This document shows positions 45,015 to 58,808 of a stretch of 64,000 nucleotides of DNA, piece by piece. This DNA comes from Escherichia phage ZX4221: sequence record OR498728.1. The stretch is one strand, 5' to 3'. Numbering within the stretch: the stretch's first letter is position 1; each line of letters starts with the position of its first letter. A program made the position numbers and the translations under genes. The notes beneath the pieces were generated by a model. That model was not told the origin of the DNA and made no database searches. It saw only the letters and a list, made by a program, of their open reading frames with translations.

Positions 45015-45285
45015 AGAGAAGTGGGAGATTTTACCATTAGTGAGTGAAGGTGGTAACGGTTGTGAGATGTACATGATACGAGGTCATGTTCCAGAACCAA
45101 TTGCACTTGAGATGGTAAACAATTTTACAGATGGTTCTTACAAAGACTTAGGAGAACCAACTGTCAAGCAACAATGGGTTAAACCTGTACCAGACAGCAC
45201 AGGTAACTGTAGTGTACTTTATCACGTTGTAGACCCTGCAAAATGCAAATCTGCAATGGCAGTAACAAACATAACCTTTGATTGA
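45007..45285 (+). CDS. hypothetical protein
   Basis: 92 aa. Confidence 0.3.
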   Translation: MAKEKWEILPLVSEGGNGCEMYMIRGHVPEPIALEMVNNFTDGSYKDLGEPTVKQQWVKPVPDSTGNCSVLYHVVDPAKCKSAMAVTNITFD

Positions 45286-46180
45286 GAGAGAGAAAACTAT
45301 GAAAACTGTTATTGAAGTAGTTGTCACCGCACAAGAGAAATTCTTCCACACAGAAAAATTTAATATCATCCAATTCCCATCTGGAGAAATTGGTGGAAAC
45401 TTCTCTGAAGATTTTGTTAAGTTTACTGAGCGTAATGCTGGTAACATTGACAATGTTATACTCACTGTGCAGGGATATGATAAAGATACACTGTTTGCAT
45501 TAGCTTTGGCTAAGGATGCCGTTGACAGTCTTGTTCCATACAAATCAGCGATGAAAACCGTTGTTTTCGGGTTCTTACCGAATGCTAGATATGACCGCCA
45601 TATGTTCAAAGGTGATTCAGCAGCACTGAAAGCTTTTGCCAACCTCGTTAATGCAATGGGTTTTGATGCAGTATGTGCTCTTGACCCTCACAGTAATGTT
45701 GCAGAAAACTTATTTAAGTGCTTTCAGAGCATGAAGCAAAAAGATGTAGCAGCACACTTTGCAAGTGACCCACGCATTGACTTCTTGGTAGCCCCAGATG
45801 CAGGTGCAGCTAAGAAGACTGAAGAGACTGCTAAAGAGGTGGATAAACCATACGTCACAATGTCTAAAGTACGCAACCTTAAGACTGGTGAAATTACTGG
45901 TATGCGAATCCTTGATGCTGTTGATTTGACCGATAAAACTGTCATGATTCTTGATGATATTTGTGATGGAGGCCGAACCTTCATAGAAGCAGCTAAACAT
46001 CTTCGTGAAGCAGGTGCAAAACGTGTGGAACTCTATGTAACTCATGGCATTTTCTCTAAAGGTGTTGAAAACTTACTTGACAATGGTATTGACCATATCT
46101 ACACTACAAACTCTTTAGGGGAAGCTAAAGACCGTGGCTTAACACCTTATGCCCAAGTTACTGTAGTAACCATTGATTGA
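45278..46180 (+). CDS. ribose-phosphate pyrophosphokinase family protein (Prs-like)
   Basis: C-terminal half aligns by eye with Prs PRPP-binding region: VMILDDICDGGRTFIEAAKHLREAGAKRV. Confidence 0.75.
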   Translation: MIEREKTMKTVIEVVVTAQEKFFHTEKFNIIQFPSGEIGGNFSEDFVKFTERNAGNIDNVILTVQGYDKDTLFALALAKDAVDSLVPYKSAMKTVVFGFLPNARYDRHMFKGDSAALKAFANLVNAMGFDAVCALDPHSNVAENLFKCFQSMKQKDVAAHFASDPRIDFLVAPDAGAAKKTEETAKEVDKPYVTMSKVRNLKTGEITGMRILDAVDLTDKTVMILDDICDGGRTFIEAAKHLREAGAKRVELYVTHGIFSKGVENLLDNGIDHIYTTNSLGEAKDRGLTPYAQVTVVTID

Positions 46181-46226: not shown

Positions 46227-48008
46227 ATGACTAAATCACTTTATGCAGTACCAGCAGGTTTAAACGCAGATGCTTACAAATCTGGTCACATTTACCAGTA
46301 TCCTAGTGCAACAGAATACTTGATGTTCAACCTTACACCACGTAGTGATAAATGGTTTAACAGTCCTTTAGCAATTGACGGTGTAGTGGCTTTTGGTATT
46401 CAACGTTTTGTTAAAGATTACTTGATAGACCACTGGAACGCCACCTTCTTTGAACGTGACAAAAAAGAAGCAATTGACGAAATCTTAGAAGTCATGAACG
46501 GTGTTCTGGGTAAAGATGCTATTGGTCGTGAACATTGGGAAGCACTTCACGACTTAGGTTATCTACCAGTTGAAGTATACGCTGTAGAAGAAGGCACAGT
46601 TGTTCCTATGCGTGTACCAATGATTGTCTTCCAGAACACTGTTTCAGGTTTCCATTGGGTAGCTGGGTATCTGGAAGATGCTTTCTCTGCTGAGATTTGG
46701 AAGGCTTGTACTATTGCAACTATTGCATTGCACTACAAACGTATCTGTAAGAAGTGGTCTGACCTTACTTGTGATAACGACTTACATTTGCCTTATCAGT
46801 GCCATGACTTTGCTATGCGTGGTATGTCCGGCTTTACTGATGACGCATTTAACGCTGTAGGACACTTAACCAGCTTTAAAGGTACTGATAGCTTCCCTGC
46901 TGTATATACAGCTAAACGCATCTATGGACAGTCCTACCCAATCTCTGATATTGGTAGCTCTGTACCAGCTACTGAACACTCTGTAATGTGTGCAAACATT
47001 GCTTGGGAAGGTGGTAATGAGTTGATTGAAGAAGAAAGACGCTTTAAAGGTGAGTTACAAACCTTCCGTCGTTTCTTAACAGAAACTTACCCAACTGGTA
47101 TTGCAAGTGTTGTTTCAGACACTTATAACTTCTGGAGAACTGTATCAGAAATCTTACCAGCACTTCGTAAAGAGATTATGGAACGTGACGGCAAACTGGT
47201 AATTCGTCCTGACTCTGGTGACCCTGTACATATTGTCACAGGTTATAAAGCAATCCACTTAGAGTGTGCTAAAAAGGCTTACTATGAACACCTAAGCAAG
47301 CTGGAAGCCAGCGACACAATGCTGAATGCTGTTCTGAACATGAAGCTTGAAAACATCAACTATGGTATTGCTGGATGGCTACTGTCAGAAGGCTACGAGA
47401 TGGTTGTTGACAGAGAAGACTTTGAAGTTGCTGATACAGTGTTGTTGAAAAATGCTTATATGGTTGGCTCTGCAAACGTTGTAACACGTCCTGTAGCAGA
47501 GATTGATGGGGCTATTAAGACCTTGTATAACATCTTTGGAGGGACTATCAACTCTAAAGGCTTTAAGGTACTGGATGAGCACATTGGCCTCATCTATGGC
47601 GACTCTATCACGTTGGAACGTGCAAACGAAATCCTTAAGCGTTTGTATGAAATGGGTTTTGCAAGCTCTAACGTAGTGTTTGGTGTAGGTTCTTACACTT
47701 ACCAGTACATGACTCGTGACACCTTTGCATTTGCTGTCAAAGCAACTCTTGCAAGCATTGGTGGTAAAGAGATTATGCTTGCAAAAGACCCTAAAACAGA
47801 TAGTGGTGTTAAGAAGTCTGCTTTTGGTGGTGTAGCACCTATGTGGGATGGTGATAAGCTGAAAGCTGTAGATGGCTATGGATTCCAGAGCTTTGAAGAT
47901 GTACTTGAGCATCCAGCTTGTGCTTTACGTTTAGTCTTTAGCGAATCTGAGCAGTTTGGCTACACAACTCTTGGTGATATTCGAAATAATATTGACAAGC
48001 AACTCTAA
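46227..48008 (+). CDS. nicotinamide phosphoribosyltransferase family protein (NAMPT/NadV-like)
   Basis: several blocks match NAMPT as recalled: DAYKSGH, HDFAMRGMS...FKGTDS, SVPATEHSVM, SVVSDTYNFW, IRPDSGDP. Confidence 0.8.
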   Translation: MTKSLYAVPAGLNADAYKSGHIYQYPSATEYLMFNLTPRSDKWFNSPLAIDGVVAFGIQRFVKDYLIDHWNATFFERDKKEAIDEILEVMNGVLGKDAIGREHWEALHDLGYLPVEVYAVEEGTVVPMRVPMIVFQNTVSGFHWVAGYLEDAFSAEIWKACTIATIALHYKRICKKWSDLTCDNDLHLPYQCHDFAMRGMSGFTDDAFNAVGHLTSFKGTDSFPAVYTAKRIYGQSYPISDIGSSVPATEHSVMCANIAWEGGNELIEEERRFKGELQTFRRFLTETYPTGIASVVSDTYNFWRTVSEILPALRKEIMERDGKLVIRPDSGDPVHIVTGYKAIHLECAKKAYYEHLSKLEASDTMLNAVLNMKLENINYGIAGWLLSEGYEMVVDREDFEVADTVLLKNAYMVGSANVVTRPVAEIDGAIKTLYNIFGGTINSKGFKVLDEHIGLIYGDSITLERANEILKRLYEMGFASSNVVFGVGSYTYQYMTRDTFAFAVKATLASIGGKEIMLAKDPKTDSGVKKSAFGGVAPMWDGDKLKAVDGYGFQSFEDVLEHPACALRLVFSESEQFGYTTLGDIRNNIDKQL

Positions 48009-52239: not shown

Positions 52240-52788
52240 ATGAAGAAATTGATTCTAGGCTTGTGCTTAATGTTTACAGCACACTTATCTTATGCAGTTG
52301 ACTGCCCAGAGCTATCAATTAGCCAAAAAGTTAACATGTTAAAAGCTTACCAATATGGTGAGAATAATATGGGTAAAGGTTGGGGTATCACTCTAGCTGC
52401 TATAGCCTTACAAGAGTCAGAGTTAGGTCTGAAGGTAGAGAATAAAAAGACCCATGACTATGGTATCTTCCAGAATCACTTGAAGACTGTTGTAAAGCGT
52501 AACAAAATTAGTCCTAATGTGGCTAAAAAGAAACTCTTAAAAGATTTTGACTATGCTGCAAAGGAAACACACAAAGAGCTTGAGTTTTGGACGAAGGTAC
52601 ATGGTCAACCAAAGTCAAAGAAGACTTTACAAAAAGTTTTAGCATCATATAATGCTGGGTATTCGTACAAAATCCCTAAAGCTAAGAAATACTCTCAAGA
52701 TGTCTACAACAATATGAAAGTCATCGCTCAATGTGAATTTGCAACAAACATTTCTAAGGTAAATCATGAAAAAATTAAGAAAGTCTGA
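52240..52788 (+). CDS. lytic transglycosylase (SLT-domain) with N-terminal signal peptide; candidate endolysin
   Basis: signal-like MKKLILGLCLMFTAHLSYA; catalytic-like ESELG, YGIFQ and SYNAGYS motifs. Confidence 0.55.
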   Translation: MKKLILGLCLMFTAHLSYAVDCPELSISQKVNMLKAYQYGENNMGKGWGITLAAIALQESELGLKVENKKTHDYGIFQNHLKTVVKRNKISPNVAKKKLLKDFDYAAKETHKELEFWTKVHGQPKSKKTLQKVLASYNAGYSYKIPKAKKYSQDVYNNMKVIAQCEFATNISKVNHEKIKKV

Positions 52789-53461
52789 TGAAGTACTGTG
52801 CCATGCTTACGACTTGCATCCTCATGAGTTAGGTCTTGATTCCTGTGTATGGACTCCAGAACAGTGCAGAGATTTTGAAGATACTGCAAGAGAAGTTGTA
52901 TGTTCACTTGAAGAGTTCCACACATCAGAACCAATTGTGAACGTTGTGGACAAAGAGACTGGACAATCTATAGGTGTAAGACGTGACAGTTTAGTCATAG
53001 TCAATAAAGACCTTGTAGAAAAAGGTAACCTCATCTTAGCAGATATTGATGGTGTTCTTACAAATTTTAATCACGAAGATTGCTCAACGGAATTGACTGA
53101 TGGGTCATTCTCACAGTACACTAATCTTCTTGACTCTGTAAGAGCAAAACCAACGTATGTTTTCAGTATCATTGATGCAATTGCTAATCATGCTGCCATT
53201 GGACTCTTGACAGCTAGAGGTGAATCCCAGAGAATACCTACTGAGATGTTTTTAAGGCATAACATAGAGCATGATTACATGCTTTTTATGCGTGGTTTTG
53301 GAACTAACTCTATAGATGCAGAAAGTTTGAAAGTGAGGATGATTCAGTCTTGCATTCTTCCTTACTTTAATATAGTATGTTTTATAGAAGATACAGAGAA
53401 GAATGTTCAGAAGGTAAACAGAATCCTTCCGCACATTAAAACTATGTTAGTAAAACATTGA
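52766..53461 (+). CDS. HAD-superfamily phosphatase-like protein (tentative)
   Basis: LADIDGVLT resembles HAD motif I (DxDG). Confidence 0.35.
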   Translation: MKKLRKSDEVLCHAYDLHPHELGLDSCVWTPEQCRDFEDTAREVVCSLEEFHTSEPIVNVVDKETGQSIGVRRDSLVIVNKDLVEKGNLILADIDGVLTNFNHEDCSTELTDGSFSQYTNLLDSVRAKPTYVFSIIDAIANHAAIGLLTARGESQRIPTEMFLRHNIEHDYMLFMRGFGTNSIDAESLKVRMIQSCILPYFNIVCFIEDTEKNVQKVNRILPHIKTMLVKH

Positions 53462-55094: not shown

Positions 55095-55302
55095 AAAGAC
55101 CCGCAAGATTGTACGTTCAGCAGTATTCATAGGGAGAGATGAAGTCGTCCCGTTTGCAGGGGAAGATGTGCTAACTTATAAGAAGGTTTTAAAACGTAAA
55201 TTCAGTGACCGTTTACGTGGCTTCATCTCTGAACCATTAGAAGATTTCAAAAGTCGCTGTGGCGAAGGCATCATCATTCAAGAGGCAATTATTCATGGCT
55301 GA
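55069..55302 (+). CDS. hypothetical protein
   Basis: 77 aa. Confidence 0.3.
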   Translation: MKVILARDKKTRKIVRSAVFIGRDEVVPFAGEDVLTYKKVLKRKFSDRLRGFISEPLEDFKSRCGEGIIIQEAIIHG

Positions 55303-55495
55303 TTTCTGCAAAGATTGTGCTATCGAAATGTTTGGACGTGATACAGGTGACTTAAAAGGTCTTATCACTGAAGATGACTTTAAAGCTGGTTATGCAATGC
55401 CAGTAATCTGTGAAGGTTGTGGGTGCATCTGGGTAGACCACGAAGGACAGCGTGTAAAACCTTCAGAAGATAAAGAATCTTGGGAGAGATGTTAA
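55295..55495 (+). CDS. small Cys-rich protein (hypothetical)
   Basis: CKDC ... CEGCGC; start placed at ATG 55295. Confidence 0.3.
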   Translation: MADFCKDCAIEMFGRDTGDLKGLITEDDFKAGYAMPVICEGCGCIWVDHEGQRVKPSEDKESWERC

Positions 55496-56281
55496 ATGGG
55501 TATTGTAAAAATCATCAAAGGTGATATCTTTGACGCATTTGATAAAGGTAAATTTGATATCATTGGTCATGGTTGCAACTGTATGAATTTCATGGGTGCA
55601 GGTATTGCAGCAACTATTTCTAAGCGTTATCCAAAAGTGTATGATACTGACACAGAAGTTTACCTGTTTGCAGGTGGCATTCGCCACAAACCTTGTGAAA
55701 ATTTACTCGGTAATTTCTCTGTAGCACGTTTAAAACAAGGTCGTATAGCTAACCTTTACACCCAACTCCATACTGGTAAAGATGCCCGATACAGTGCTTT
55801 AGAGTCATCTTTGAAGCAGCTTAACAGATACTGTGAAGTCAATCAGTTGAAGAAAGTCGGGTTACCTATGATTGGTGCAGGTATCGGTGGGCTAGACCCT
55901 CAAGCCGTCACAGTCATCATCAATCAGGTGATGAAGAGTGTAGATGTTTATCTGTATGTCTATGAAGGAGAGATGTACCACAAGTTACGCTCAGGTTGGA
56001 AGAACTACTGTGAACCAGAGTACTTTGCAGGTGTAGTTGTCTTCACAGATAACGCAGTTACCCTCTTCAGACGAAGAAAAGGTAAGATACATCAAAGTAA
56101 CCCTCCGGTTGAAAAGATGTCTCTAAGTAACGCTCTAGTTACCCACCTGTCGAAGAGCAACCACAGGATTGCTGTAACATTTGGTAGTGATGCAGAAACT
56201 TATATCTATGCAAGAACTGATGAGGATATCGAGACAGTTTTTTCTTCACCAGAAGTTACCTTCTTAGACGCAAAGAACTAA
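55496..56281 (+). CDS. macrodomain protein (ADP-ribose binding/hydrolase-like)
   Basis: IKGDIF, FDIIGHGCNCMNFMGAGIAATI and VGLPMIGAGIGGLD match macro-domain signature blocks as recalled. Confidence 0.55.
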   Translation: MGIVKIIKGDIFDAFDKGKFDIIGHGCNCMNFMGAGIAATISKRYPKVYDTDTEVYLFAGGIRHKPCENLLGNFSVARLKQGRIANLYTQLHTGKDARYSALESSLKQLNRYCEVNQLKKVGLPMIGAGIGGLDPQAVTVIINQVMKSVDVYLYVYEGEMYHKLRSGWKNYCEPEYFAGVVVFTDNAVTLFRRRKGKIHQSNPPVEKMSLSNALVTHLSKSNHRIAVTFGSDAETYIYARTDEDIETVFSSPEVTFLDAKN

Positions 56282-56337
56282 GAAACTCTGTAGAATATTC
56301 ACAATAGACTAAGCCTTTCTTATCTGGTAGATTTTTC

Positions 56338-56550
56338 AGGTAAGGAGGGCTTTTTCATTTCAGGATTGTGCAGGTAGAGTTCTGTAGAGAAGTCTGTAGA
56401 GAGAATTTTGAACTCCAAAGAGAAAATTCATTTTCAAACTGTGCAGGTAATCTCCAAAGAGCTTTTTCATTTTCAAAACGTGCAGAGAAAAATCAGGTCG
56501 GGCAAGAAAAATCATTTTAGAATTGTGCAGGTAGGTGGGTGCAGGTGGGG
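56338..56550. repeat. iteron-like degenerate direct repeats (TTCATTTTCA..TGTGCAGGTA)
   Basis: GTGCAG motif at about 56370, 56442, 56472, 56527 and 56539, each preceded by TTCATTTT-like sequence; CTGTAGAG repeated three times. Confidence 0.55.
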
Positions 56551-56719
56551 ATGTCGCCATTTCTCACAAGGCTACCACATCTGGAAATAAAAGTCAACAG
56601 AAAAATTTGTAGCGGATTGAAAAATAATTCTTGATTGTAGTTCTGTTTTGTGGTAGTCGCGCGCACCCGTTTCATTACAATTTTTGCAAAAAAAAAAAAA
56701 AATATTTTTAAAATTCCTA

Positions 56720-56798
56720 TTGACTCTTTGAGTATGGTTATCTAATATTTGCATCAGACGGGCAAGCAAGCCCACTTCCTAAACTGGAGAATCTAAAA
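56720..56798 (+). promoter_or_regulatory. strong sigma70-like promoter (TTGACT-17-TAATAT) with A15 tract upstream and leader hairpin
   Basis: TTGACT 56720-56725, TAATAT 56743-56748, hairpin GGGCAAGCAAGCCC, conserved RBS region CCTAAACTGGAGAATCTAAAAATG. Confidence 0.55.
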
Positions 56799-57005
56799 AT
56801 GCTTTACAGTCGTGAATTGATGGTTACAACTAACGTTAACACAAAGGTAAAACGTTTTTACATGCAAATTTGTGACGTATGGTCTAGAATATCAGAGGCT
56901 GACTATTGCAACTATGTAGAAACGGCTATTAATTCTAATTGCTACCTTACAAGAAACACTAAGAAATTTACAAGGCAGACAGCGATTTACTACTACGACA
57001 AATAA
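56799..57005 (+). CDS. small early protein (hypothetical)
   Basis: 68 aa; conserved leader/RBS cassette. Confidence 0.4.
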   Translation: MLYSRELMVTTNVNTKVKRFYMQICDVWSRISEADYCNYVETAINSNCYLTRNTKKFTRQTAIYYYDK

Positions 57006-57093
57006 AGTACTTTACAGGGGGCTTAAAAGTTGATATCTTAAGCCCCAGATAAAGAGCTTTACTAAATTAACCCTTAAACTAGGAGATTCAAAA
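57003..57093 (+). repeat. intergenic cassette type A (hairpin GGGGCTTAA..TTAAGCCCC + conserved RBS)
   Basis: AAGTACTTTACAGGGGGCTT...AGCCCCAGATAAAGAGCTTTAC...TAAACTAGGAGATTCAAAAATG. Confidence 0.6.
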
Positions 57094-57474
57094 ATGGCTT
57101 ATCGTGCACCGAAATTCATCAACAAAGACAACTTCCGCAACGCACTGGAGAAGTCACTTGATGAAAAATTTAACGGCAAATTGATTGTTGTCCACGCATT
57201 CAATTTTAAGTATGATATTAACGGGAATAAAATCAACCATTACACGGCAACCATGTTAGATGGCACGCTATCAAGTGAAAAAGCCGTACTGAATGCACTT
57301 GCAGGACGTGGTAAAAACCTGATAAGATGCGATAAGAGACGTTATCAGGGTGGCGCATATGGTTATGATGATGCTGTTTATCATCTTGAAAATATGGGCT
57401 ATTCAGTGGAAAAAGCTGGAGTGTCTCAAATAATCGGCAGTGACGGCTATGTGACAATTTTCAAAATTAACTGA
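57094..57474 (+). CDS. small early protein (hypothetical)
   Basis: 126 aa. Confidence 0.45.
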   Translation: MAYRAPKFINKDNFRNALEKSLDEKFNGKLIVVHAFNFKYDINGNKINHYTATMLDGTLSSEKAVLNALAGRGKNLIRCDKRRYQGGAYGYDDAVYHLENMGYSVEKAGVSQIIGSDGYVTIFKIN

Positions 57475-57562
57475 TAAAGTACTTTACAAGGGGCTTATAG
57501 TTCGATAAAGTAAGCCCCAGATAAAGAGCTTTACCACTCAATCCTAAATTGGAGATTCTAAA
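57475..57562 (+). repeat. intergenic cassette type A
   Basis: CTGATAAAGTACTTTACAAGGGGCTTATAGTTCGATAAAGTAAGCCCCAGATAAAGAGCTTTACCACT...GGAGATTCTAAAATG. Confidence 0.65.
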
Positions 57563-57820
57563 ATGGCTATTATCAAAAACGTTGTAATTGCTGCAAAAAC
57601 TCGTGATGACGCTCGCGTTATGGCTAAAAAGTTATGCGGAAAAGTTGTTGACAACGGGAAACAATCTGCTGTAAGGTGGAGCGTGAAGGCTGATAAACAA
57701 CTAACCTTAAAACGCAGTTCAAACAATCTTTTTAAAGGTGTAAAATCACTCGGTAAAGTGAACGTGTTTACCAAAAAAGGCTATAAAATGCACTTATCAT
57801 TAACTGGCAATTTAATCTGA
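57563..57820 (+). CDS. small early protein (hypothetical, basic)
   Basis: 85 aa. Confidence 0.45.
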   Translation: MAIIKNVVIAAKTRDDARVMAKKLCGKVVDNGKQSAVRWSVKADKQLTLKRSSNNLFKGVKSLGKVNVFTKKGYKMHLSLTGNLI

Positions 57821-57908
57821 TAAAGTACTTTACAGGGGGCTTAAAAGCTGATATCTTAAGCCCCAGATAAAGAGCTTTACCACTAAATCCTAAACTGGAG
57901 ATTCAAAA
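57821..57908 (+). repeat. intergenic cassette type A
   Basis: same cassette with variant hairpin loop. Confidence 0.65.
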
Positions 57909-58421
57909 ATGAAAACTGTAGACGCTACCTTTGAAGTTGTAAAAGAAAAATTCACCATTATTTATGAAGCTGTCAATTGCTTTGAAGCAAGCCATAATCT
58001 CGATAATTGGGAGTTTACAAACGACCATCAAGGCGGTGTGACTGTTAAAAATCCTAACTGTCAGCATAATGATTTTAAATATGCAATCCCTTTGCATTAC
58101 AGCCTTAAACAGCTTTCAAGTGACTATGCAAAACAAGGCCGCGATAATCCATCGAAAGAGGCTTACACGAGCTTACAGAAAGAACTAGAAAGAGATTTAG
58201 AGGCTTCAGAGTATAACCTTGCCGCGAAAGTTGTGGATGCAAACGGTAGCACGGTTTTAGAAAGTTTTTATCTTGGTTATGCTTTCGATTGGTGCTATCG
58301 TGACGGTGATGATTTAGAGGATAGACTAAAAGAAGAGGTGAACAACGCAGACGCAGAATCTGAAGTATTAGAACGTTTGGAATCGTTGAAAGACTCAGTG
58401 ATGAATATCTTTAAGAACTAA
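57909..58421 (+). CDS. small early protein (hypothetical)
   Basis: 170 aa. Confidence 0.45.
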   Translation: MKTVDATFEVVKEKFTIIYEAVNCFEASHNLDNWEFTNDHQGGVTVKNPNCQHNDFKYAIPLHYSLKQLSSDYAKQGRDNPSKEAYTSLQKELERDLEASEYNLAAKVVDANGSTVLESFYLGYAFDWCYRDGDDLEDRLKEEVNNADAESEVLERLESLKDSVMNIFKN

Positions 58422-58511
58422 ATAGATTTCTTTACACGGGGTTATCAAGCTGGTAGGATAGCCCCAGATAAAGAGATTTATCACTAAATCCTTAAACTAG
58501 GAGATTCAAAA
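58422..58511 (+). repeat. intergenic cassette type A (divergent copy)
   Basis: TTTCTTTACACGGGGTTATC...GATAGCCCCAGATAAAGAGATTTATCACTAAATCC...GGAGATTCAAAAATG. Confidence 0.55.
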
Positions 58512-58808
58512 ATGAAACTATCAAATAAAGTCCGTGAAAATCTAAGCAAGTTGCTTAATAAAATTGATTTCATTGAAACATCAAGGAATAGTCATGATGT
58601 TATGGAATGGTTACACGGAAAAATCAAAGGTCGTCGTGTAGTGATTTGCTTATGGAATAGTTGCAGGGAATATAAAAAACCTGTATTACAAGTCAATATC
58701 TATGATGATACTTTTAAAAGCCCTGTAAAGTCTAAAAGCGATTTATTAGAATCTTATGAGATAACTGTAAATGGCAAGGTATCACGTAAAGAGGAAGCAC
58801 CATGTTAA
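58512..58808 (+). CDS. small early protein (hypothetical)
   Basis: 98 aa. Confidence 0.45.
   Translation: MKLSNKVRENLSKLLNKIDFIETSRNSHDVMEWLHGKIKGRRVVICLWNSCREYKKPVLQVNIYDDTFKSPVKSKSDLLESYEITVNGKVSRKEEAPC

Follow-up and report, generated by a model that had tools for sequence, protein, structure and literature searches.

The open reading frame (ORF) located at positions 55496–56281 of Escherichia phage ZX4221 (sequence record OR498728.1; the window, i.e., the whole stretch analyzed, comprises 64,000 nucleotides) encodes a protein of 261 aa, the first 156 residues of which are a real macrodomain, confirmed above chance by profile, motifs and predicted fold. The macrodomain belongs to a widespread, already annotated phage family, for relatives of which counter-defence roles were recently published. 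By analogy with these relatives, the protein is quite likely to be an active ADP-ribose (ADPR) hydrolase directed at the C1'' position and having an anti-defence role, and we tentatively propose the reversal of DarT2-type modification as its main job. A preliminary description of this DNA, made from the sequence alone, had called the product a macrodomain protein and suggested that it could reverse host defences based on ADP-ribosylation or process NAD-derived signals. The assignment was borne out for residues 1–156 but not for residues 157–261 (40% of the protein), which are a separate orphan domain; the functional suggestion is supported, by analogy, by the published roles of T4 Tk.4/AdfM and Adpp, which it matches. 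Apart from the orphan C-terminal domain, the gene is ordinary and nothing in it is new in kind. Its elements are listed below:

55496–56281, plus strand: macrodomain gene, ATG to TAA, 261 aa plus stop; codes for the macrodomain and, fused to it, the orphan C-terminal domain
55496–55963, plus strand: macrodomain, residues 1–156 (Pfam PF01661, AlphaFold2 model and Foldseek, profile against PDB)
55568–55582, plus strand: motif H25-G-C-N28-C29, with H25, G26, N28 and C29 invariant in 28 aligned family members
55595–55618, plus strand: first glycine-rich (diphosphate-binding) loop, G34-AGIAATI-41, preceded by the stretch D21-I22-I23
55751–55765, plus strand: motif N86-L-Y-T-Q90, invariant in the 28 aligned family members
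55871–55891, plus strand: second glycine-rich loop, I126-GAGIGG-132
55964–56278, plus strand: C-terminal domain, residues 157–261; one helix, six beta strands and a C-terminal helix

In the Pfam search, the Macro family PF01661 was matched by residues 25–141 with a score of 30.1 bits (gathering cut-off 22, E = 5e-7), and a phmmer search against PDB sequences found TARG1/OARD1 and both solved DarG macrodomains. A family alignment was built from 28 relatives drawn from a database of 5.8 billion proteins, and its profile matched the PDB entries of TARG1 (E = 3.6e-17), SCO6735 (2e-16), Poa1p (9e-16) and Mycobacterium tuberculosis DarG (8e-15). Modeling of the full-length protein with AlphaFold2 led to a model with a mean predicted local distance difference test (pLDDT) value of 83.9, reaching approximately 90 or more through most of residues 11–120. 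A three-layer alpha/beta/alpha macro fold was predicted for residues 1–156, and the Foldseek search with the model retrieved TARG1 (E = 8e-11, target template modeling (TM) score 0.85), Thermus aquaticus DarG (TM 0.83) and Poa1p (TM 0.76), each with a probability of 1.00. The profile search and structure prediction that the preliminary description had named as checks thus both found a macrodomain. The signature blocks it had pointed to, GAGIAATI after the D-I-I stretch and IGAGIGG, are present where it had placed them, and the ligand-binding residues, whose loss it had named as a refutation, are retained: according to the alignments, both glycine-rich loops and the distal-ribose Asn (N28) are kept as ADPR-binding elements.

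A comparison with PHROGs placed the protein in phrog_335 ("phosphatase") with E = 7e-115. The tblastn search with residues 1–159 matched 3,013 of 50,697 phage records, including the tk.4 genes of T-even phages at 33–37% identity. T-even Tk.4 and the studied protein were 36% identical (blastp 85–86 bits, E about 1e-24) and shared the motifs HGCNC, MGxGxA, NLYTQ and P.IGxGIxGG. In addition to the residues of the two listed motifs, M33, G36, A38, D52, G72, P124, G127 and G129 were invariant in the 28 relatives. At the nucleotide level, the gene showed 80–97% identity with 200 phage records (at least 90% in 192 cases); nearly all of these records come from Felixounavirus, i.e., the Felix O1-like myoviruses of Escherichia and Salmonella to which the window belongs; the phage origin of the gene was thereby upheld as well. 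In these relatives, the gene was annotated as "phosphatase", "putative phosphatase", "macro domain protein" or "hypothetical". Its orthologs are ORF29 of the phage Felix O1 and gp014 ("phosphatase") of the phage AYO145A, and the original Felix O1 record already pointed out that the product resembles Tk.4, there called the T4 "17.5 kDa protein in tk-vs intergenic region".

Analysis of the active site indicated a family-specific feature. By our alignment, H25 presumably corresponds to H32 of TARG1 and to H23 of Poa1p; H23 is a residue mutated in deposited Poa1p structures. N28 was aligned with the active-site Asn of T. aquaticus DarG (N22) and PhiKZ AdfM (N23), the active-site residues of DarG and PhiKZ AdfM being named in PMC13309987. 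In the profile alignment to TARG1, Q90 fell on the catalytic K84 and G131 on D125, so the K84/D125 dyad is not kept. In the direct alignment, PhiKZ gp104 reads ...FPTK... and TARG1 ...LITK..., and this protein and Tk.4 read ...NLYTQ...; Q90 thus stands at the catalytic Lys of TARG1 (K84) and of PhiKZ AdfM (K78) and hence at K80 of T. aquaticus DarG. Because the NARP1-embedded macrodomain of Vibrio phage Pontus (NVYGQ), Tk.4 and the studied protein all carry Gln where the Lys would be, the alignments make this Gln characteristic of the phage family as a whole, including the member class with shown enzymatic activity; the Lys considered essential in DarG is absent from the whole family. Therefore, the protein is not an enzyme of the DarG, TARG1 or PhiKZ type, although it has the same fold.

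The best matches among curated models were the DarG macro models of NCBIfam (E = 1e-14) and PADLOC (E = 8e-15). However, identification of the protein as a DarG2 antitoxin was ruled out by the low score against the DarG2 equivalog NF048014 (54.4 bits versus a cut-off of 250, with positions 2–153 of the 338 model positions covered), the replaced Lys, and the lack of both a DarT-binding domain and a darT neighbour. No darT was located next to the macrodomain gene, where four of the adjacent ORFs had no Pfam family and matched only PHROGs of unknown function.

Two further features of the family should be mentioned. In a metagenomic relative of 339 aa (P0020), a Gln-type macrodomain is joined to cREC_REC, a "cyclic-phosphate processing receiver" domain (Pfam PF20274, E = 5e-7), and this fusion hints that some family members may process ADPR cyclic-phosphate or ADPR-1''-phosphate. 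The name AdfM covers two macrodomain subfamilies, namely that of PhiKZ gp104 (Lys-type, DarG-like), which was validated biochemically, and that of T4 Tk.4 (Gln-type, Poa1p-like), for which the support is genetic only. T4 Tk.4 is approximately 39% identical to the NARP1-associated Adpp type, i.e., one family carries two proposed functions.

Genes for macrodomains rank with the most common accessory genes in large phages: approximately 41% of myoviruses carry one (PMC9503650). Some macrodomains have been tied to specific defences, but only since 2025. The Tk.4/phrog_335 family holds two published functions, anti-DarTG2 "AdfM" and NARP1-helper "Adpp". In a transposon screen, tk.4 was the single T4 gene required against DarTG2, and its clean knock-out sensitized the phage; the authors, who reported genetics but no biochemistry, named the gene adfM and proposed that its product removes ADP-ribose from DNA enzymatically (bioRxiv 10.1101/2025.11.20.689424). 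The protein gp104 of the chimallivirus PhiKZ, independently named AdfM, strips ADP-ribose from DarT2-modified TNTC single-stranded DNA in vitro. Adpp of Vibrio phage Gary is a Poa1p-like macrodomain protein encoded inside the NARP1 operon. It converts ADPR-1''-phosphate, the product of the RES-domain defence aRES, to ADPR, which lets the enzymes Adps and Namat rebuild NAD+ and is needed for NARP1 to overcome aRES (bioRxiv 10.64898/2026.01.28.702374).

Both NARP1 enzymes are also encoded in the window:

45278–46180, plus strand: Adps, Prs-like ADPR-pyrophosphate synthetase, first NARP1 enzyme (Pfam Pribosyltran/Pribosyl_synth; AYO145A annotation)
46227–48008, plus strand: Namat, Nampt-like nicotinamide ADPR-transferase, second NARP1 enzyme (Pfam NAPRTase/NAMPT_N)

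These genes are annotated as ribose-phosphate pyrophosphokinase and nicotinamide phosphoribosyltransferase, respectively. The "NAD-salvage-like pair" of the preliminary description is therefore real, but it is NARP1 rather than a classical salvage pathway. NARP1, which rebuilds NAD+ from ADPR and nicotinamide, was first found, by experiment, as genes 79–80 of Bas63, a Felixounavirus (bioRxiv 10.1101/2024.02.11.579819). Adps lies on the same strand as the macrodomain gene, 9.3 kb upstream. Between the Namat stop and the macrodomain start there are 7.5 kb with about 16 ORFs, including rIIA/rIIB, and terminators, which places them in different transcription units. In Adpp/NARP1-AP systems, the macrodomain gene is expected inside the Adps-Namat operon or within two genes of it; here it does not lie there, and the macrodomain gene is linked to NARP1 by the shared genome only.

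A comparison with the characterized relatives revealed both common and distinctive features. The protein and T4 Tk.4 belong to the same macrodomain subfamily, with Gln at the TARG1/DarG Lys position. However, Tk.4 is a stand-alone protein of 159 aa encoded between vs and tk in T-even genomes, whereas the studied protein has an additional C-terminal domain of 105 aa, and the anti-DarTG2 role that was shown genetically for Tk.4 would be attributed to the Felixounavirus protein by analogy. With Adpp, it shares a Poa1p-like Gln-type macrodomain with the conserved His/Asn motif and Gly loops, and Adps and Namat occur in both phages. The Adpp type was represented by gp172 of Vibrio phage Pontus, which belongs to the same genus as Gary and has the same Adps-macro-Namat arrangement. 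Pontus gp172 contains HQCNC, NVYGQ and PLIGCGLAGGDW (motifs H.CNC, Y-G-Q and IGCGLAGG). It is only 28% identical to the studied protein, with Y-G-Q versus Y-T-Q, and the Adpp gene lies between Adps and Namat and has no C-terminal domain, in contrast to the distant gene described here. In the Pakpunavirus Henu5, the macrodomain gene is one short ORF away from Namat.

PhiKZ gp104 and the DarG2 macrodomain (PDB 5M3E, 5M3I) have the same fold (TM 0.81–0.83), the same Asn (N28 = N23/N22) and the same shape of the second loop (G-x-G-x-G-G-L-D). They differ in the catalytic Lys (K78/K80), which is Gln here; identity to gp104 is 24%, and, unlike DarG, the phage protein has neither a DarT-binding domain nor a darT neighbour. 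TARG1/OARD1 and Poa1p, which rank at the top both by structure and by profile, are single-domain proteins of cellular organisms and serve other roles. All-against-all BLASTP gave the studied protein 85–86 bits with Tk.4, 75 bits with Henu5 and 58 bits with Pontus; Tk.4 scored 85–87 bits with Pontus and 87–90 bits with Henu5, the allele of the Felixounavirus EcoM2 scored 85.5 bits with Henu5, and PhiKZ gp104 scored 17–38.5 bits with any of them. The relationships among Tk.4, Pontus, Henu5, the EcoM2 allele and the studied protein were thus star-like, and pairwise similarity did not separate an AdfM-like from an Adpp-like role.

The C-terminal domain was analyzed separately. The tblastn search with this domain found 242 phage records, all of the Ounavirinae type (Felixounavirus, Suspvirus and the Mordin/Sf13-17 group), in which it was always fused to a macrodomain; more distant macrodomain fusion proteins are present in Pectobacterium phages. 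A hidden Markov model (HMM) of 12 C-terminal domains, searched against 1.84 billion representative proteins, matched only fusion proteins or fragments (among them P0029 and P0031, fragments of orthologs), plus one spurious match. The latter, a repeat protein of 2,374 aa (P0030; 10 stretches, E = 1.5e-14), was rejected as a repeat-inflated chance match because its tandem adhesin-like repeats match a short G/V/T-rich stretch. Modeling of the domain alone with AlphaFold2 (pLDDT 77.8, predicted TM score 0.71) indicated six strands preceded by an N-terminal helix and followed by a C-terminal one. A structure search of BFVD found only the SUSP2 ortholog as a fold relative, and the sequence and profile comparison did not reveal any likeness to the DarT-binding domain of DarG. 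The isoelectric point of the domain ranges from 4.6 to 7.3 among the orthologs, i.e., from acidic to neutral. The ratio of nonsynonymous to synonymous substitution rates (dN/dS) was 0.05 versus AYO145A, 0.12 versus Felix O1 and 0.30 versus SUSP2 for the C-terminal domain and 0.05, 0.08 and 0.16, respectively, for the macrodomain part. Since its dN/dS values are 0.05–0.30, the C-terminal domain is a real, constrained domain under purifying selection.

The locus also varies within the genus. In the phage EcoM2, the gene is located at the same position between flanks that are 87–95% identical to the window at the nucleotide level, but the similarity collapses from codon ~47–48 of the macrodomain gene into the downstream intergenic region and resumes at 57061. 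In this mosaic stretch (55637–57061), EcoM2 has a diverged allele (39% amino acid identity for the entire protein), and its intergenic region is also different.

According to the mechanism that we propose, the macrodomain (residues 1–156) would bind the ADPR moiety in the canonical cleft of the two glycine-rich loops, with N28 contacting the distal ribose. The group attached at C1'' of the distal ribose would be hydrolyzed and free ADPR released; catalysis would proceed without the Lys of TARG1/DarG, with Q90 at that position and H25 invariant in the family. The main in vivo substrate is suggested to be DarT2-type ADP-ribose on thymidines of replicating phage single-stranded DNA; once it is removed, replication would resume, in line with the proposal made for T4 Tk.4. 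A likely second substrate is ADPR-1''-phosphate, and NARP1 of the same phage could convert the ADPR formed from either substrate back to NAD+. The C-terminal domain, specific to Ounavirinae, would probably add a macromolecular contact, to the target or to a host defence protein. The two roles, DarT2 reversal and processing of ADPR-1''-phosphate, share their chemistry (a C1'' substituent is removed and ADPR is formed) and are not exclusive.

Several observations favour a DarT2-type target, namely the distance of the gene from NARP1, the extra domain, which would be superfluous for a small-molecule phosphatase, and the allelic replacement. The combination of a macrodomain with an extra C-terminal domain also parallels the two-domain logic of DarG2 (PMC11825919). 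The T-even phages, the largest clade of the family, do not, to our knowledge, carry NARP1, so a NARP1-independent role is needed for them, which also favours a DarT2-type target.

Data from the PhageMaP screen of Bas63 are consistent with an accessory role. There, gene 95 ("putative phosphatase"), listed as non-essential, is found 10 genes after rIIA/B (genes 84/85), and, judging from its annotation and position, it is most probably the ortholog of the macrodomain gene. In the conditions covered here, taken from the supplementary tables, its fitness scores are 0.62–1.13, compared with values below 0 for essential genes. This probable ortholog thus appears to be dispensable on laboratory hosts, as expected for an accessory counter-defence gene. 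In the PhageMaP main text, gene 95 is not among the defence-screen hits, NARP1 genes 79/80 are more essential under several defence systems, and DarTG is not mentioned; the description of aRES came after that paper. Neither Felixounavirus nor Bas63 is named in the preprints on aRES and HIDEN-SEQ.

Other facts weigh against DarT2 reversal. Conversion of ADPR-1''-phosphate to ADPR is the sole biochemical activity measured in the family (bioRxiv 10.64898/2026.01.28.702374). The catalytic Lys of the DNA- and protein-deconjugating relatives is absent, and its replacement by Gln means that the chemistry of TARG1, DarG and PhiKZ AdfM is not transferable to this protein. Replacement of the allele in EcoM2, expected for an arms-race gene, is weak evidence of this, because cassette replacement is also common in phage mosaics generally.

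A different assignment, which we consider possible but somewhat less likely, is that the protein is a dedicated, Adpp-like ADPR-1''-phosphate phosphatase acting in trans with the phage NARP1 (a "split NARP1-AP"). In such a system, aRES would phosphorolyse NAD+ to nicotinamide and ADPR-1''-phosphate, which is unusable by Adps; the macrodomain would remove the 1''-phosphate, after which Adps and Namat would rebuild NAD+. The protein might also rescue ADPR-phosphate by-products of the unstable ADPR-pyrophosphate intermediate. Poa1p, itself an ADPR-1''-phosphate phosphatase, is among the top fold and profile matches, and the Poa1p-like His is kept as H25. The Pontus protein shares motifs with the studied one, macrodomain genes adjoin NARP1 in two unrelated phage genera (Pontus and the Pakpunavirus Henu5), and NARP1 itself, discovered in a Felixounavirus, is encoded in the same genome. 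In addition, aRES is present in E. coli, Klebsiella and Enterobacter, a metagenomic relative joins this type of macrodomain to the cREC domain, and ADPR-cyclic-phosphate was seen in NARP1-active cells (bioRxiv 10.1101/2024.02.11.579819). However, bona fide Adpp genes are intra-operonic, whereas here rIIA/rIIB and terminators separate the gene from Namat. Within the set compared, identity is lowest with the Adpp type (58 bits), a small-molecule role leaves the C-terminal domain and the allelic replacement unexplained, and the T-even phages have kept the family without, as far as we know, carrying NARP1.

Reversal of another macromolecular ADP-ribosylation, for example, of mRNA modified by CmdTAC-type systems, of protein targets of host toxins or of products of a phage-encoded transferase, is improbable. 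The structural neighbours TARG1 and SCO6735 do remove ADP-ribose from proteins, an RNA-targeting ADP-ribosyltransferase defence exists in E. coli (PMC11618068), and the accessory domain could confer target specificity. But no activity of this kind is on record for any relative in the family, the TARG1 dyad is aligned to Q90/G131, and no ADP-ribosyltransferase was annotated in the inspected parts of the related genome. Even less probable is a non-catalytic binder or sponge for ADPR-derived signals (Thoeris cyclic-ADPR isomers, His-ADPR) or an enzyme clearing ADPR-phosphate after RNA repair together with a Pnk-like gene. Soluble ADPR derivatives have been predicted to be the main targets of phage macrodomains (PMC9503650), the Lys known to be catalytic has been lost, and a PHROGs "polynucleotide kinase" ORF is found at 52766–53461. 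At the same time, none of the putative catalytic residues (H25, N28 and Q90) varies in the 28 aligned members and one family member is catalytically active, which favours an enzyme over a sponge; as for RNA repair, no Tpt1/KptA-type source of ADPR-1'',2''-cyclic phosphate was seen and the Pnk-like gene belongs to a separate transcription unit.

With DarT2 reversal retained as the tentative main job, an unlikely extension of it can be imagined for the C-terminal domain. The domain would be a second counter-defence module that binds and blocks a host defence protein, for example, an NADase, DarT2 or another ADP-ribosyltransferase. Combining a hydrolase with a toxin binder, such a protein would resemble the two-domain antitoxin DarG by convergence, not by homology, and the replacement allele would track variable host toxins. 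A further possibility of this kind is that a single Gln-type active site acts on both DarT2-modified DNA and ADPR-1''-phosphate, the ADPR released from both being fed into NARP1.

Three points are noteworthy in this protein, namely the Gln that replaces Lys throughout the family, the choice between one substrate and two in a NARP1-encoding phage, and the orphan C-terminal domain. Felixounaviruses encode both the macrodomain protein and NARP1, and genetic tools exist for Bas63. Felix O1-like phages are used in biocontrol and therapy directed at Salmonella and E. coli, and the host defences that they can neutralize bear on the prediction of host range.

The surroundings of the macrodomain gene include the following elements:

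52766–53461: ORF of 231 aa (phrog_3970), "polynucleotide kinase" in the annotation of relatives, approximately 2 kb upstream of the macrodomain gene
55295–55495, plus strand: Cys-rich ORF of 66 aa, CxxC...CxxC (CKDC...CEGCGC), phrog_2210 of unknown function
56311–56352, plus strand: terminator-like hairpin with a T-run, ending the transcription unit of which the macrodomain gene is the last gene

The product of the ORF at 52766–53461 contains a HAD-like DxDGV motif (ILADIDGVL), has no Pfam match, and its resemblance to T4 Pnkp-like proteins is confined to their phosphatase half. The stop codon of the Cys-rich ORF abuts the start codon of the macrodomain gene (TAAATG), and this arrangement suggests that the two are probably co-translated. 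The Cys-rich product is zinc-ribbon-like and may be a candidate partner of the macrodomain protein; its ORF is conserved in Felix O1, AYO145A, SUSP2 and EcoM2, where it occupies the corresponding position. In AYO145A, gp014 closes a run of small ORFs downstream of rIIA/rIIB amid sigma-70-like promoters, and a rho-independent terminator is annotated at the same place as the hairpin in the window. Because of this layout (promoters, position after rIIA/rIIB and terminator), the macrodomain gene is probably expressed early.

The intergenic region downstream (56282–56798) contains, just after the terminator, four direct copies of a unit of ~28–34 nucleotides with the core TCATTTYMRAANYGTGCAG (56346–56549). 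The core is followed by GTA in three of the four copies, and one extra GTGCAGGT is also present. The core was found nowhere else in the 64 kb, in which 0.09 matches are expected by chance. The identity of the spacer is ~96% with Felix O1 over its first ~205 nucleotides and ~97% with AYO145A over its first ~255 nucleotides, i.e., this part is more conserved than the synonymous sites of the adjacent gene (dS 0.2–0.47 versus Felix O1). An Rfam scan of this repeat-rich region gave no match, and no convincing ORF was found there; the repeats may be a protein-binding array or a non-coding RNA. Further downstream, a sequence of ~100 nucleotides is repeated before successive small ORFs with 64–85% identity (56990–57093, 57462–57565, 57808–57911 and about 58420–58517), and these repeats probably represent repeated early promoter or leader regions.

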